From assembly GCA_016432645.1 (NCBI GenBank), contig CP066698.1:197062-261061 (forward strand): 64,000 bases of DNA. The letters run 5' to 3'. This DNA is from Candidatus Falkowbacteria bacterium. Its GTDB lineage: Bacteria > Patescibacteriota > Patescibacteriia > Patescibacteriales > UBA12465. Position numbers and translations under genes: made by a program. Positions 36,052 to 60,742 of this stretch are shown here, in pieces. Within the stretch, counting starts at the first letter, position 1, and each line of letters begins with the position of its first letter. Under the pieces are notes generated by a model that was not told the DNA's origin, ran no database searches, and saw only the letters and a program-made list of their open reading frames with translations.

Positions 36052-36582
36052 TTATTTTTTCTCACTGATAGCCTTTAAGACACCAACAAAATTTCTCAAG
36101 TTGCCGGCTAAAACATTGACAAAGCCGGAGATTGGAGCATTCATGGAACCAACCAACTTGGCGTATAATTCCTGCTTGCTTGGCAATTTAGCTAAAGCCT
36201 CAACCTGATCTTTGGATAATAGCTTATTTTCTAAGATACCGCCCAAAAAGACAATTTTATTTTCCTTTTCTTTATCCTTACGAAATTCGCCTAAAATTTT
36301 AGCGGGAGAAACCTCATCTTCATAGGAAAAGATAGCGGCCACTTTACCATCAAAATCTCTAGCATTTAAGCTGGCAACGTTTTGATCCTTGAAGGCAATA
36401 TTCATTAAGGTCTTCTTGGCAACGTAATATTCGTTATTTCCGGCAATCAATTTTGCGCGCAAATTTTCATTATCCTTAACTCCGAAGGCATTAAAACCGG
36501 CGAAGATAACAGATTTTGATTTTTTGATTTTTTCGCTTAAATTACGTAAAATCTCTTGTTTTTGAATTTTATTCTTTGGCAT
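36052..36582 (-). CDS. rplJ: 50S ribosomal protein L10 (true start MPKNKIQKQE at 36582; the longer ORF-track N-terminus runs through the leader)
   Basis: L10-like sequence and ~176-aa length from the internal ATG. The upstream 87 nt overlap a structured leader. Confidence 0.85.
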   Translation of the reverse strand: MPKNKIQKQEILRNLSEKIKKSKSVIFAGFNAFGVKDNENLRAKLIAGNNEYYVAKKTLMNIAFKDQNVASLNARDFDGKVAAIFSYEDEVSPAKILGEFRKDKEKENKIVFLGGILENKLLSKDQVEALAKLPSKQELYAKLVGSMNAPISGFVNVLAGNLRNFVGVLKAISEKK

Positions 36583-36695
36583 ATAATAAAAAATCTGTGG
36601 TACCACAGATGTAAAAAACGCTAAAAAGCGGATAATTACCTCGGCAAGATTTACGGCCGAAGCGGCCACTTGCTGTCTGTGGTATCTTTAGTTAT
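36583..36695 (-). promoter_or_regulatory. ribosomal protein L10 leader-like structured 5' UTR
   Basis: Long-range stem ACCACAGA...TCTGTGGT enclosing hairpins GGCCG-AAG-CGGCC and CGCT-AAAA-AGCG. Its position in front of rplJ matches known L10(L12)4 autoregulatory leaders. Confidence 0.55.
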
Positions 36696-36701
36696 GGGTA
36701 T

Positions 36702-49149: not shown

Positions 49150-49776
49150 TTAAATCGCAGCGCCGGTTCTTTGAAAGTCTCTGATTATCTTGATTACAAT
49201 CCCCCTGATTTCCACATTCTTGCGGAAAATCGGCTCAAAGGTCGGATTAGCCGGCTGCAGTCTGATTCTTCCCTTTTCCTTATAATATCTTTTTAGAGTC
49301 GCCTCGTTATCATCAATAATCGCCACGGCGGTATCGCCATTATCCGCCCAGGACTGCTTTTTAATAATCGCGAAGTCGCCATCAAAAATCCCGTCGCCAA
49401 TCATCGAATTTCCCCTTACTCTCAGAGCGTATAAATCGCCATCCTGGAAGCGTTTGTCCCGAGCAATCTCAATAGCCTCATCCGGGACTTCAATCGCCTC
49501 TATGGGCCTTCCAGCGGCTATTACGCCAACTAGAGGAACGGACATAAACTCTTGCTTAGCGTTAAGAGTTACCAGCTCCAAGCTGCGGGCTACCCCCTTA
49601 ACTTTTTTAATAATTCCCTTATCAATCAAATTCGCGATATGCTCGTGAATAGTGGAGATTGTGGAAACCCCAAACTTATCCTTAATCTCGGTTAAGGAAG
49701 GCGCATAGCCGTGCTTCTCGCTATACTCAGCGATGAAGTCGCGGATTTCCGCCTGTTTTTTTGTAAGCGTTGTCAT
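49150..49776 (-). CDS. lexA: LexA repressor (start at MTTLTKKQ; the ORF-track N-terminal 18 codons are rejected)
   Basis: wHTH N-terminus, Ala-Gly cleavage site (VIAAGRP), Ser (GNSM) and Lys (ATLKRY) of the S24 peptidase dyad. Confidence 0.9.
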   Translation of the reverse strand: MTTLTKKQAEIRDFIAEYSEKHGYAPSLTEIKDKFGVSTISTIHEHIANLIDKGIIKKVKGVARSLELVTLNAKQEFMSVPLVGVIAAGRPIEAIEVPDEAIEIARDKRFQDGDLYALRVRGNSMIGDGIFDGDFAIIKKQSWADNGDTAVAIIDDNEATLKRYYKEKGRIRLQPANPTFEPIFRKNVEIRGIVIKIIRDFQRTGAAI

Positions 49777-49837
49777 ATATTTGTTAATTATAATTATACC
49801 TACATTATACCCGAAACTAACCCGAAGCACAAGAGCA

Positions 49838-49864
49838 AAAGAAAACCCCGTAATTACGGGGCTA
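49838..49864 (-). terminator. terminator after gpsA
   Basis: CCCCG-TAATTA-CGGGG followed by a T-rich run on the minus strand. Confidence 0.7.
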
Positions 49865-49876
49865 TTTTGAAGGTGG

Positions 49877-50884
49877 CTAAGGCTTGGAGCGATGCGATAT
49901 TTCGGTTTTAAACTGGGCTAAATTAAGTTCCCCAGAAAACAGGCGATGAATCAAATGTAAAATATGGTAATCCTCAATTTTGGTAATAAGCGGTAAAGCG
50001 GTAATTGTTTTTAAGCCTTCAATTGTCTTTTTTTCTGCTTTCATTTTCTGCTCGGCCTCCTCAATGCTTAATCCCTGCCCGACTAAAATGCCGAACTCTT
50101 TATTCCGAGTTTTTCCGGTACAACTCACCCAGAGATCATTGCCCCAGCATTGGCTGCCTAAAGAAAAAGTTTTAGCCTGAGCGCCAAACTGTTTGGTGGC
50201 AATCGCTTCAACTTCAGCGGCAGCGCGAGAAATAATCCGCGTCTCCACGCTATAGGGCAAACCGAGGCCATTAGTGATGCCGGCTAAGATAGATAATACA
50301 TTTTTAAAGGCGGCAGCGCATTCCACGCCCGCCACGTCATCGGTCGGATAAACAAACAGATGCTCCGAGGCAAAAATGGATGCGAGTTCCGGCCACAAAT
50401 CAGTTTCCCGGCAAGCCAAACTCGCTCCTAAGGGGCCGTGGTTAAGTAAGTCGCTGGCAATCATCCCACCGGAGAGCATAGCATAAGTATAATCTTTACC
50501 GGTTAATTTTTCCGCGACAATTTCGGAAATACGCAAACCGGTTTGGCTATGGAAAGCTTTGGAAGTATTAACAATCGTTAAGGGCTTTTGAATAAAGGGA
50601 GCGATTTCCTCTAAAACCGCGCCGACCGAATCGGAAGTGACAGATAAAATCAAAACATCACAGTCCGCTAGCAGCGCTTGCGAATTAGGCGCGATTAAAA
50701 CGCGGCGGCTAATTTCCACCGGCTTAAATAAAGATAAATGTTGGCGCTGGCTATCTAAATGAGTATTTAAAAGCGGATTACGGTCGTAAGCATTTAGAGA
50801 AAAATCGCTTGCTTCTTTACGGTCCAAATGCTTCAAAATGGCATAGCCGAAATTGCCGATGCCATAGATAGAAACTTTTTTCAT
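49877..50884 (-). CDS. gpsA: NAD(P)H-dependent glycerol-3-phosphate dehydrogenase family protein
   Basis: N-terminal Rossmann fold (IYGIGNFG) and DVAGVECAAAFKNVLSILAGITNGLGL, similar to the GpsA signature. Confidence 0.75.
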   Translation of the reverse strand: MKKVSIYGIGNFGYAILKHLDRKEASDFSLNAYDRNPLLNTHLDSQRQHLSLFKPVEISRRVLIAPNSQALLADCDVLILSVTSDSVGAVLEEIAPFIQKPLTIVNTSKAFHSQTGLRISEIVAEKLTGKDYTYAMLSGGMIASDLLNHGPLGASLACRETDLWPELASIFASEHLFVYPTDDVAGVECAAAFKNVLSILAGITNGLGLPYSVETRIISRAAAEVEAIATKQFGAQAKTFSLGSQCWGNDLWVSCTGKTRNKEFGILVGQGLSIEEAEQKMKAEKKTIEGLKTITALPLITKIEDYHILHLIHRLFSGELNLAQFKTEISHRSKP

Positions 50885-50968
50885 ATCTTTTTATTTTAGA
50901 TAAAAAATATGGAAAAAGCAATTTCCGAGAACTCCCGCAAGGGGGTCCGTTTTTGTATATATATGAAA

Positions 50969-51799
50969 TTAATATTTCTGCTCTAGTTTTTCGATATTTG
51001 AATTGCCAATTAATGATTTCATTTGCGAAATTGCACTTTGGTTTAATTTTAAAAGTCTGTCTGGCTGCGTTAGGCCATCCTTTATATATTCGGCATTGAT
51101 ACTTTCAAGATTAGCCAGAACAATCAATTGACAAACATTGGAATAATCACGAATATTACCTTCTAATTTAGGGTTTTTATCCCGCCATTCTTTAGCGGTT
51201 AAATTAAATAAGGCTTTATTTAAAACATCAGCTTCGCTCGCATAAGCGATATTTGTCTCAGAATTTGATAATTCAAACGGTAAAATAAGATTATTCTGAA
51301 TTGCATCAGTATGAATCTTATAATTAATTTTAGTTAACATCCGCTTTACGTCCCAGTCGAAAGCAAGCCTCTGATTTTCTTCTGCTTTTAGTCTTTGAAA
51401 CTCTTTTATAAGATATAATTTAAACTCCGGAGAAAGCCAGGTCGCAAATTCAAAAGCAATATCTTTATGGGCGAAAGTGCCGCCATATCTACCTGTTGCA
51501 GATTTAATACCAATTGCGCGAGTTTTTTTAATCCACGCCGAAGACGAAAGTATAAAGCCGTTAGTTCCAGCTTCATTTTTAATGTTATGGAATTCCATAA
51601 CATTAAAATTAGCATTATATACTTGTTCCCAGGCGCCAATAAATTGAATTGTATACTTAGTAGTGAGCCAATTAGCAATAACTATCCCCGTAGACTCAGT
51701 ATTTTTAAACTTGGCCATATCCGTTAAAGAAATATAATCATCTCCTTCCCGTGATGTGTTTACAGCTATTGCTTTGTGGTGGATAAGAATTTTTTTCAT
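50969..51799 (-). CDS. KilA-N domain-containing DNA-binding protein
   Basis: N-terminal DYISLTDMAKF...ANWL...YGGTFAHKDIAFEFATWLSPEFKLYL is a typical KilA-N. Confidence 0.75.
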   Translation of the reverse strand: MKKILIHHKAIAVNTSREGDDYISLTDMAKFKNTESTGIVIANWLTTKYTIQFIGAWEQVYNANFNVMEFHNIKNEAGTNGFILSSSAWIKKTRAIGIKSATGRYGGTFAHKDIAFEFATWLSPEFKLYLIKEFQRLKAEENQRLAFDWDVKRMLTKINYKIHTDAIQNNLILPFELSNSETNIAYASEADVLNKALFNLTAKEWRDKNPKLEGNIRDYSNVCQLIVLANLESINAEYIKDGLTQPDRLLKLNQSAISQMKSLIGNSNIEKLEQKY

Positions 51800-58584: not shown

Positions 58585-58887
58585 ATGGACAAGTTTGTAG
58601 ATATTAAGAAGCCAAATATCTCTTTAGAGAATGTAGCCAATCCGATTTGGGTATCCGTATCCGAAGCGGCGGCTTTAGGAGGCGTCCAGGGAAAGACTAT
58701 TAGACGGGCTTTGAAGGATGAAAAAGGGACTCTCGTCTTTAAGATTGTTAAAGACCGATATCAAATTGAACTCGGTTCCCTGATTATTTTTTTACATCGG
58801 AATAAAAAGCTGAATAATAAATTGCAAGACTTTGGTTTGGGACAATATGTTAGCGAGTGGAAAGCGGAGACCGAAAAGGAGCGCTAA
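58585..58887 (+). CDS. small helix-turn-helix DNA-binding protein (excisionase/MerR-like HTH)
   Basis: WVSVSEAAALGGVQGKTIRRAL is a classic HTH. 100 aa. Confidence 0.65.
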   Translation: MDKFVDIKKPNISLENVANPIWVSVSEAAALGGVQGKTIRRALKDEKGTLVFKIVKDRYQIELGSLIIFLHRNKKLNNKLQDFGLGQYVSEWKAETEKER

Positions 58888-58913: not shown

Positions 58914-58946
58914 AAAAAAGCCCCTCTGACAAGGAGGGGCTTTTTG
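58914..58946 (+). terminator. terminator after the HTH gene (GCCCCTC-N7-GAGGGGC plus T5)
   Basis: GC stem plus T-run. Confidence 0.8.
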
Positions 58947-58986
58947 TTTTAAGCGGAGTTTATCTGACATCAGTTATAATACTTTT

Positions 58987-59064
58987 GATGTGGGCCCGGG
59001 AGTGGTCTCCGTGGCCAGATTTAGCACCCGGCTTCCGGGGTTCGATTCCCCGCGGGTCCACATC
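58987..59064 (+). ncRNA. tRNA-like cloverleaf RNA that is not a canonical tRNA
   Basis: 12-bp terminal stem (GATGTGGGCCCG / CGGGTCCACATC), with G:U at the third pair of the inner 7 bp. Mini D-like hairpin GGAG-UGGU-CUCC. 4-bp stem with a 13-nt loop. Canonical T-arm CGGGG-TTCGATT-CCCCG. TATAAT at 58975-58980. Confidence 0.6.
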
Positions 59065-59096: not shown

Positions 59097-59125
59097 TTGA
59101 CTAAGCTTGTCGCTTTTGCTATAAT
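59097..59125 (+). promoter_or_regulatory. near-consensus promoter TTGACT-N17-TATAAT
   Basis: Hexamers at 59097-59102 and 59120-59125. Confidence 0.7.
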
Positions 59126-59131
59126 AAATTT

Positions 59132-59209
59132 TACGAGTGCTAAATCTGGCGACAATATACAAGACCATTCTGAAGTGTGAAAAACCTCTCCTAAACGGAG
59201 AGGTTTTTT
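59132..59209 (+). ncRNA. candidate ~78-nt sRNA (promoter to terminator)
   Basis: Starts ~7 nt after the -10 and ends at the ACCTCTCC-TAAAC-GGAGAGGT plus T6 terminator. Nucleotides 59137-59150 are the exact reverse complement of 59014-59027 in the tRNA-like RNA. Confidence 0.6.
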
Positions 59210-59235
59210 ATTTACCCGCAAGTCTTCATCCGGCA

Positions 59236-59274
59236 AAATAAAAACCACCTTGGATTCCGTCAAGGTGGTTTTTG
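59236..59274 (-). terminator. terminator of the HU gene (ACCACCTTG-N8-CAAGGTGGT)
   Basis: 9-bp stem with T-runs on both strands. Confidence 0.8.
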
Positions 59275-60566: not shown

Positions 60567-60643
60567 TGGTGGTCGCTAGTGGATTCGAACCACTGACCTC
60601 CGCGATGTGAACGCGGCGCTCTAACCAGCTGAGCCAAGCGACC
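60567..60643 (-). tRNA. tRNA-Val (anticodon CAC), CCA encoded
   Basis: Manual cloverleaf: acceptor GGTCGCT/AGCGACC, D-arm GCTC...GAGC, anticodon arm CCGCG-TTCACAT-CGCGG, T-arm AGTGG-TTCGAAT-CCACT, ACCA. Confidence 0.9.
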
Positions 60644-60658
60644 ATTTCCATTTTAAGG

Positions 60659-60742
60659 TGCCCAGAGGGGGATTTGAACCCCCACAGGATTGCTCCTACA
60701 GCGTTCTGAACACTGCGTGTCTACCAATTTCACCATCTGGGC
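60659..60742 (-). tRNA. tRNA-Leu (anticodon CAG), long variable arm
   Basis: Acceptor GCCCAGA/TCTGGGC, anticodon arm CAGTG-TTCAGAA-CGCTG, variable arm AGGA-GCAA-TCCT, T-arm GGGGG-TTCAAAT-CCCCC. Confidence 0.9.

Follow-up and report, generated by a model that had tools for sequence, protein, structure and literature searches.

A predicted tRNA-like RNA and its co-varying antisense small RNA form a conserved two-RNA module in Falkowbacteria

What could an RNA shaped like a tRNA, but with an arm unable to decode, be doing in a bacterial genome? This question is raised by a 78-nucleotide (nt) element, here named tRL for tRNA-like RNA, at positions 58987-59064 (+ strand) of a 64-kb stretch of DNA, the window, taken from a Candidatus Falkowbacteria genome assembled from metagenome. 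An earlier note, made from the window's letters, had described the element as a cloverleaf with an alanine-type acceptor stem and had offered three roles for it: a tRNA domain like that of transfer-messenger RNA (tmRNA), a YrlA-like tRNA mimic or a regulatory decoy. We find a second small RNA (sRNA) gene, co-oriented with tRL and 70 nt downstream of it, and comparison with relatives indicates that tRL and the adjacent sRNA are a conserved two-RNA module of a small group of Falkowbacteria within the candidate phyla radiation (CPR). The tRNA mimic and the antisense sRNA are each of a known kind; their combination as a co-evolving, arrayed two-RNA module matches no described family.

In the window, tRL reads GAUGU-GGGCCCG-GGAGUGGUCUCC-G-UGGCCAGAUUUAGCACCCGGCUU-C-CGGGGUUCGAUUCCCCG-CGGGUCC-ACAUC. 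An inverted repeat closes it with a 12-bp helix (58987-58998 with 59053-59064) of 11 Watson-Crick pairs and G58994:U59057. The outer 5 bp of this helix (58987-58991 with 59060-59064) extend the acceptor stem as a leader/trailer helix, while the inner 7 bp, GGGCCCG at 58992-58998 with 59053-59059, are the acceptor stem itself, in which G58994:U59057 corresponds to G3:U70 and A59060 to the discriminator. There follow a D-like hairpin, GGAG-UGGU-CUCC (58999-59010), a variable arm (59012-59034) and a T arm, CGGGG-UUCGAUU-CCCCG (59036-59052), that is near-invariant in the family. All four helices described in the earlier note were recovered in place, as were its G3:U70 pair with the A that follows, its D-like hairpin and its T arm. 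The arm at the anticodon position has to be redrawn: the family shows a 7-bp stem (59012-59018 with 59028-59034) around a 9-nt loop (AUUUAGCAC, 59019-59027) where a 4-bp stem with a 13-nt loop had been read, and the window copy of this stem has two mismatches, U·U and A·C. The 78-mer is G+C-rich and has a predicted folding energy of −42.1 kcal/mol, against −30.3 ± 3.3 for shuffled sequences (z = −3.6; 0/200 shuffles as stable).

A TATAAT −10 box stands at 58975-58980 (+ strand), at a distance of 6 nt from the first G rather than the 7 nt given earlier, with no recognisable −35 element; all relatives have a −10-like hexamer at an equal distance from tRL. The left boundary of the module is a bidirectional terminator hairpin of the upstream 100-aa gene (58915-58945, both strands), found both as an inverted repeat and by a terminator scan. 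Two terminators had been thought to flank tRL; this upstream one does, and the downstream one belongs to the separate sRNA gene, which had been missed.

Relatives were collected in several ways. Syntenic contigs were retrieved through homologues of the 100-aa protein encoded at 58585-58887, a strict pattern scan of GTDB genomes yielded 3 loci, all in Falkowbacteria or Patescibacteria, and a pattern scan of JGI metagenomes yielded 15 loci, of which 3 are family members. A covariance model (R1) built from the relatives was then used to find further tRLs; it scores tRL at 88-102 bits in L027-L034, L040, L042 and L043, and gives the window tRL 99 bits. In total there are 12 distinct tRL sequences from related metagenome contigs. 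Ten of them occupy what we call the HU slot, between the 100-aa gene and the HU gene, and the other two (L024 and L043), from another Patescibacteria lineage, are flanked by pilin genes. Scans of viral contigs, phage records and plasmid records gave no match to tRL.

Across these sequences the scaffold (columns 1-24 and 49-78) has a mean pairwise identity of 96%, the arm (columns 25-48) 66% and the flanking intergenic DNA 71-82%. The cloverleaf is 97.6% paired over the 12 sequences, and slid registers reach at most 55%; 8 pairs have changed on both sides, with a covariation score reached by none of 500 shuffles. In the arm stem, 6 of 7 pairs have changed on both sides. In the acceptor stem, columns 11/68 are C-G in 10 sequences, U·G in L043 and U-A in L024, and in the extension helix columns 2/77 are A-U in 10 sequences, G·U in L043 and G-C in L024; the closing helix thus co-varies too, by way of wobble pairs. 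The D and T stems are invariant save for a change from G-C to G·U at columns 13/24, and hence uninformative for covariation, and the T loop varies solely between G and A at the position equivalent to R57. The alanine-identity acceptor held up in every copy, with G1-C72, G2-C71, G3:U70 and A73 invariant (12/12). The arm loop has the 9-nt consensus AYUURRCAC, which includes a YUNR motif. With compensatory changes in its helices, and with a scaffold that has not decayed as its flanks have drifted, tRL is, as judged by sequence comparison, a real and constrained RNA gene.

The sRNA gene of the window encodes a predicted AU-rich RNA of about 77 nt (59133-59209, + strand). Its promoter (59097-59125, + strand) consists of TTGACT, a 17-nt spacer and TATAAT, with TG upstream of the −10 box, and matches the consensus at 11 of 12 positions; this near-consensus promoter, in contrast to the −10 box alone at tRL, is kept in every sRNA copy of the relatives. 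The first ~40 nt are predicted to be unstructured, and the RNA ends in a terminator hairpin followed by a U run (59180-59208), seen in the fold and as a perfect 12-bp inverted repeat. Within the unstructured 5′ part lies a seed (59134-59153) that forms a 20-nt inverted repeat with tRL 59011-59030 and is complementary to it at 18/20 positions by Watson-Crick pairing. The complement of the seed has no second match in the 64-kb window, and thus no further target of the sRNA was found there. All 12 tRLs have a co-oriented complementary sRNA immediately upstream or downstream, with the same promoter and terminator architecture.

The sequences of the arm and the seed differ from locus to locus, and they differ together. 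In the window the tRL arm CCAGAUUUAGCAC faces the seed GUGCUAAAUCUGG, and in L004 the arm CCGGACUUAGCAC faces GUGCUAAGUCCGG; in L024 the seed matches its partner arm CGUAACCAAACUUGACACU over 19/19 nt, and in L043 a 19-nt stretch of the arm forms a seed duplex with two G·U pairs. Seeds are 71% identical between relatives and paralogues, and the duplexes span 16-20 bp. Over the 12 cognate tRL-seed rows, 93.3% of cells are paired, against at most 45% in slid registers, and 13 of the 20 intermolecular pairs (39 cells) have changed on both sides, which none of 500 shuffles reaches. In a fixed register, 9 of 10 tRLs find their best Watson-Crick partner (16-19/20), among 15 sRNAs, at their own locus. 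The differences in arm and seed are 86% transitions, and 10 of the 14 interior non-Watson-Crick positions are G·U on the annotated (sense) strands. Because such transitions and sense-strand G·U pairs are what wobble intermediates would leave, the pairing probably acts at the level of RNA and not as a DNA inverted repeat. From these comparisons we are highly confident that the pairing between tRL and sRNA is specific and co-evolving.

Downstream of the seed the sRNA carries a second element, box B (AGACCAUUCU, 59162-59171), complementary to the D hairpin of tRL at 58999-59008; the predicted duplex has an energy of −15.0 kcal/mol, reached by 1% of shuffles. Box B reads AGACCAUUCU in the window, GGAACCAUUUC in a second class, and GGAGGCC in L024 and L043, where it pairs with the hairpin's 3′ half. 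For 11 of the 15 sRNAs the observed duplex energy is reached by at most 1% of shuffled bodies, and the linker between seed and box varies from 4 to 13 nt. Duplex prediction by RNAduplex and by cofolding extends the interaction past the seed and favours the heterodimer by 5-17 kcal/mol. The sRNA is thus predicted to be a bipartite antisense RNA of tRL columns 13-44. Were it to pair in full, neither the arm stem nor the D hairpin could form, and the tRNA-like elbow would be lost with them.

How close is tRL to known tRNA-shaped RNAs? It shares with tRNA the 7-bp acceptor stem, the 5-bp T stem and a T loop of UUCGAUU or UUCAAUU, and departs from it in the 7-bp/9-nt arm, the lack of an acceptor-D linker (positions 8/9) and the 1-nt variable region; the claim that it cannot decode as a normal tRNA is borne out by this arm. 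ARAGORN makes no call at tRL in the window, nor in L020, L024 or L028, and Rfam gives no match there at the gathering score (29 bits for the tRNA family RF00005). The only ARAGORN calls in the window are tRNA-Val and tRNA-Leu (60567-60742, − strand), and Rfam adds to these two tRNAs just a ribosomal protein L10 leader (36579-36700, − strand; RF00557, 54.8 bits), which is the sole cis-regulatory RNA that it calls in the window. The tRNA-Val(CAC) gene of this pair encodes CCA and the tRNA-Leu(CAG) gene, in which CCU follows, does not; because of the latter, post-transcriptional CCA addition must exist in the organism.

In a permissive Rfam scan the best match within the clan is tmRNA (RF00023) at 22.6 bits, against a cut-off of 47, with an E value of 5e-8 on a short stretch. 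The alignment covers both ends of the tmRNA model with 328 internal model positions deleted, and this match out-competes RF00005 within the clan. Two-piece tmRNA (RF04321) gives a partial match of 18.6 bits over the T arm and 3′ end, and mascRNA (RF01684) a sub-threshold match of 32.5 bits (cut-off 42.5). tRL is therefore tRNA-like, specifically like the tRNA-like domain of tmRNA, and belongs to no curated family. Like tRL, the tmRNA domain, in its one-piece and two-piece forms, has a GGG...UCC acceptor with G3:U70 and A73, a canonical T arm, a reduced D region with UGG and no anticodon, and a helix leading elsewhere replaces the anticodon stem. tRL differs in being only 78 nt long, with a 9-nt loop capping the helix where tmRNA has its pseudoknots and tag reading frame. 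It also differs from two-piece tmRNA in that the gene order is not permuted and both acceptor strands are in one RNA, and its partner RNA has no conserved open reading frame (ORF) and would unfold the D hairpin. The earlier suggestion of a tmRNA-like tRNA domain is accordingly right as to resemblance, with a score far below threshold and no mRNA-like domain.

Other RNAs that combine an acceptor stem, a T arm and a small D hairpin with no decoding arm are mascRNA/menRNA (RF01684), YrlA and viral tRNA-like structures. An extension of the acceptor stem by leader and trailer, as in tRL, has been described in the processing of mascRNA (PMC8457004). mascRNA is eukaryotic, from the 3′ end of a vertebrate long non-coding RNA, whereas the host of tRL is bacterial. 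The hallmarks of YrlA, a helix that binds Ro and linkage to rsr, were not seen at the tRL locus, where no TROVE protein or rsr gene was found among the ORFs scanned in about 40 kb around it and no Y RNA family matched in the permissive Rfam scan, so that the YrlA-like proposal is not upheld. Unlike tRL, none of these RNAs is known to have an antisense RNA dedicated to it. Searches of the literature brought up no account of a CPR RNA that is tRNA-like and has an antisense partner.

Genuine tRNAs outside the family can have the GGAGUGGYCUCC D arm too, with its D loop of 4 nt. Four of the 12 non-member JGI loci (L012, L016, L019 and L025) hold ordinary tRNAs with this arm that ARAGORN calls, mostly tRNA-Met(CAU), on unrelated metagenome contigs where 8-13 tRNA genes are densely clustered; the remaining non-member loci are unrelated or uncalled tRNA-like sequences. 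A tRNA-like element in L018 (399-476, − strand) escapes ARAGORN, shares G3:U70 and the D hairpin with the family, shows a loop of roughly 9 nt where an anticodon loop would be, scores 43 bits with R1 and is flanked by an ORF of no known function and a helix-turn-helix-type ORF. We did not count it as a member, as it has no complementary partner within its 1-kb contig.

Module units occur singly or in tandem, with 1-3 units per locus and arrays in L002 (2 tRLs and 4 sRNAs) and L003 (3 tRLs and 6 sRNAs). These arrays, like the co-variation of sRNA and arm, had escaped the earlier note. The two genes differ in whether they occur alone: sRNAs with no matching tRL are found in L037 (sRNA only), L002 (b and c), L003 (f) and L010 (d), and none of the 12 tRLs lacks a complementary neighbouring sRNA. 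The module is present or absent among close relatives (absent in L035, L036 and L041) and sits in two unrelated chromosomal contexts, the HU slot and the slot between pilin genes. In L007 and L008 (2961-3618) a Gp49 (HigB-like) toxin gene and a helix-turn-helix antitoxin gene replace it in the HU slot, and the L003 array contains an IS200/IS605-type Y1 transposase gene of 99 aa (1280-1880) and a unit that is absent from the near-identical L002.

Traces of past units remain in the slot. A decayed remnant of a tRL 3′ end, also overlooked before, lies at 59215-59232 (+ strand; ACCCGCAAGUCUUCAUCC against CCCCGCGGGUCCACAUCC), directly before the bidirectional terminator of the HU gene (59240-59273, both strands), an inverted repeat that forms the right boundary of the slot and is conserved in all syntenic loci. 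At the same junction L002 and L003 have an undecayed remnant and L042 has an intact tRL, and truncated tRL 3′ ends (CCGCGGGUCCACAUC) follow some sRNA terminators. Since remnants and an intact tRL share one junction, the arrays appear to turn over by duplication and deletion. In a comparison with att sites, 3′-end remnants were located in the window at this position, in L002 near 3634 and in L003 near 885; the inserts are sRNA and tRL units only, with no integrase close by, and the boundaries of the remnants are 2 nt apart.

The HU slot is a hotspot for accessory cargo, and other small ORFs occupy it, two of 105 aa (L037 3008-3325 and L020 ~1500-1830, − strand) and one of 212 aa (L004 2969-3607); Pfam and PHROGs gave no match for these ORFs or for the 100-aa neighbour. 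The latter contains a helix-turn-helix-like stretch (WVSVSEAAALGGVQGKTIRRAL), shows 65-100% conservation across more than 160 protein clusters from Patescibacteria, always beside a gene for an extracytoplasmic function (ECF)-type sigma factor, and is present with or without the RNA module. A 106-aa ORF called in L027 (2876-3196) and at the equivalent place in L030-L034 begins within tRL (ATGTGGGCCCGG...) and continues across the sRNA. Other loci lack this ORF or have a different one, and it is almost certainly an artefact of gene calling across a pair of RNA genes. Elsewhere in the window (49150-51799), just downstream of the uvrABC cluster, a LexA repressor gene and a gene with a KilA-N domain flank a glycerol-3-phosphate dehydrogenase gene; this context is chromosomal housekeeping, with a KilA-N gene that is possibly phage-derived.

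What might such a pair of RNAs do? The explanation that we tentatively favour, while regarding the model as a whole as somewhat short of an even chance, is that tRL is a stable tRNA-mimic effector that is unfolded and neutralised by a labile cognate sRNA, in a pair resembling type VIII toxin-antitoxin systems. Of the roles proposed earlier, the regulatory decoy comes nearest to this. The acceptor/D/T scaffold would be held constant, presumably by the tRNA-handling machinery, while the arm at the anticodon position could take any sequence that pairs. The 5′ end of the sRNA would nucleate on the 9-nt YUNR-type loop, the duplex would spread through the 5′ strand of the arm to 16-20 bp, and box B would then invade the invariant D hairpin. 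With arm and elbow opened, tRL would be inactivated and the long duplex probably exposed to a double-strand RNase. Free tRL would act on the translation apparatus, possibly by being alanylated through G3:U70 and then competing for alanyl-tRNA synthetase (AlaRS), EF-Tu, SmpB or the ribosome. Here expression, processing, charging, the identity of the effector and any toxicity are inferred. Processing by RNase P and alanylation are plausible because of the invariant G3:U70 and A73, the U at −1 and the extended leader/trailer helix.

That the sRNA would be the antidote is suggested by the existence of orphan sRNAs with no tRL standing alone, by the strong sRNA promoter set against a tRL with a −10 box only, and by a structured tRL set against an sRNA with an unstructured 5′ part. 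A toxin-antitoxin reading would also fit the accessory distribution and a slot that elsewhere holds a HigBA pair. In type VIII systems the antidote acts through antisense pairing of small RNAs (PMC8610362), and here the antitoxin-like RNA is predicted to pair with the toxin-like RNA through a covarying duplex of 16-20 bp together with box B. The type VIII pairs SdsR/RyeA and CreT/CreA resemble the module in that both partners are small RNAs from adjacent genes, with a strong antidote promoter and tolerated orphan antidotes. SdsR and RyeA are cis-antisense RNAs from opposite strands of one locus, whereas tRL and sRNA are separate, co-oriented genes, and for this reason their complementarity must be kept by co-evolution. 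Type I systems are a poor model, as there is no conserved ORF: the scaffold shows no variation at any codon position, and the changes in the arm are those of a co-varying RNA. We know of no described RNA toxin that is a tRNA mimic.

The proposed pairing pathway also has parallels. The YUNR U-turn motif speeds antisense recognition in hok/Sok and plasmid copy-control systems (PMC6562991), and hok/Sok, CopA/CopT and ColE1 RNA I/RNA II share with the module the YUNR loop, loop-first pairing that spreads into the stem, and a specificity that resides in a few loop and stem nucleotides differing between related systems. ColE1 RNA I is itself cloverleaf-like. The module differs from these kissing-loop systems in that the target is a non-coding tRNA-shaped RNA instead of an mRNA or replication primer, in having no toxin ORF and a trans-encoded antisense RNA, and in a bipartite pairing that also attacks a conserved scaffold hairpin. 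A far-reaching version of the toxin model, which we consider rather improbable, would have tRL processed by RNase P and RNase Z, CCA-ended and alanylated through G3:U70, after which it would enter translation either as a tmRNA that depends on SmpB and has no template or as a decoder of GYY codons with a long arm. tRL would then be the first RNA toxin to work by tRNA mimicry; a co-evolving sRNA of its own would silence each copy, and the arrays of mutually orthogonal pairs, with the orphan antidotes, would constitute an RNA-only addiction or defence system in CPR.

Several observations weigh against the toxin-antitoxin interpretation or the evidence beneath it. Beyond the arm the scaffold helices vary little, and pairing in the D and T stems rests mainly on the analogy with tRNA. 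In multi-sRNA loci "cognate" means the best match, which biases the count of tRLs partnered at their own locus, although 8 of the 12 loci have a single sRNA. The excess of G·U is weakly significant given the 86% transitions (P ~0.09 if half of the changes give G·U), the L028-type partner is imperfect (15 Watson-Crick pairs and 1 G·U of 20, with an interior mismatch), and transitions with compensation would be expected of a helix drifting neutrally no less than of one under diversifying selection. The synteny of L024 and L043 is stable, and the module is not highly mobile. Finally, the pairing and its covariation are explained equally well by a non-toxic pair.

In that last case tRL would be a tRNA-scaffolded sponge or target mimic that titrates the sRNA, or the sRNA, perhaps with other targets, would tune a beneficial tRL. 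This we regard as unlikely, though a serious contender. A sponge derived from a tRNA precursor is known, 3′ETS-leuZ of E. coli; a tRNA shape would give a sponge stability and clean processing, and orphan sRNAs would fit an independent role of the sRNA. As tRL would in this reading, 3′ETS-leuZ, a transcript associated with tRNA, titrates sRNAs by base-pairing. It comes from the spacer of a true tRNA operon, and its sRNA partners are conserved and have many mRNA targets, whereas tRL carries its pairing site within the tRNA-like body and its sRNA is seemingly dedicated. The variable seeds are hard to square with conserved mRNA targets, the window offers no other match to the seed complement, and a box B aimed at the tRL scaffold makes the sRNA look devoted to tRL. 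We give a small chance to a tmRNA-like role, in which alanylated tRL and SmpB would act as a minimal or split tmRNA with the sRNA as template in trans, or tRL would donate alanine (for example to Fem-type transferases). The invariant acceptor identity elements and the best clan match point this way, the U at −1 and the GG available for contact between D and T loops are compatible with RNase P processing and elbow formation, and several sRNAs have a stop codon just before an A run (for example, CAU UCU GAA GUG UGA/UAA). Against it, no ORF is conserved in frame, the putative tags (HSEV, HFET, RKAT) do not have the hydrophobic or Ala-Ala terminus usual for such peptides, and an SmpB-bound domain needs the D hairpin, which box B would open; with seed-to-box linkers of 13, 4, 13, 6, 6 and 6 nt breaking the frame, we rejected the sRNA as a tag ORF of a split tmRNA. 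The score far under the RF00023 cut-off and the conserved 5-bp leader/trailer helix speak against this role too, and no smpB gene, nor alaS or an integrase gene, turned up in the ORFs checked over about 40 kb of surrounding sequence.

Could tRL decode after all, in an aberrant way? The last 7 nt of its 9-nt loop (window 59019-59027; columns 33-41) resemble an anticodon loop, U-U-RRC-A-C, with U33-like and A37-like positions and triplets AGC or GGC (Ala) and AAC or GAC (Val), and U35, U36, C39 and A40 are invariant although free to co-vary with the sRNA. AlaRS does not read the anticodon, and an alanine-charged tRL might then mistranslate or frameshift at GYY codons. We consider this very unlikely, since the arm exceeds a normal anticodon arm by 2 bp and 2 nt, positions 8/9 are missing, the variable region is a single nucleotide, both ARAGORN and the Rfam tRNA model reject the element, and a YUNR U-turn serving antisense pairing may explain the same invariant positions. 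It is more improbable still that the inverted repeats serve recombination, for instance by an integrase or in a promoter switch that inverts, with the RNAs incidental. The 20-nt inverted repeat of the window does flank a 103-bp segment with a strong promoter, direct-repeat remnants of the tRL 3′ end exist and the slot gathers insertions. The complementary copy is upstream, however, in L010, L020, L042 and L002 unit 1, where the repeat encloses no promoter, and on this ground we rejected an invertible promoter; the predominance of sense G·U and of transitions, the discontinuous complementarity to the D hairpin with its variable linkers, and the absence of a recombinase among the ORFs checked in the window neighbourhood also count against a DNA-level feature. 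That tRL is a decaying tRNA-Ala pseudogene or a functionless att-site leftover, as the earlier note had allowed, has next to no probability. tRNA finders do not call it and a genuine decayed fragment lies nearby, but the scaffold stays near-identical across lineages whose flanks have diverged, the cloverleaf has compensatory changes, and tRL has its own −10 box and a co-evolving partner; flanking-protein identities of 72-100% exclude that the relatives are one recent clone.

The locus is a compact, sequence-defined case of two separately encoded RNAs that co-evolve, one a tRNA scaffold presenting a variable recognition arm and the other an antisense RNA devoted to it, whose pairing is also directed at the scaffold. 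If tRL is a sponge, nature would have its own version of the "tRNA scaffold" engineered to keep RNA inserts stable. Either way, the 12 natural specificity variants are a ready set of orthogonal RNA-RNA pairs, and the invariant G3:U70 acceptor stem makes alanylation a clear and testable prediction. If tRL is an effector, as the toxin-antitoxin reading has it, RNA-only toxin-antitoxin systems would extend to tRNA mimicry, and the module would be a new class of accessory element for the CPR bacteria, whose non-coding RNA biology is almost unexplored.

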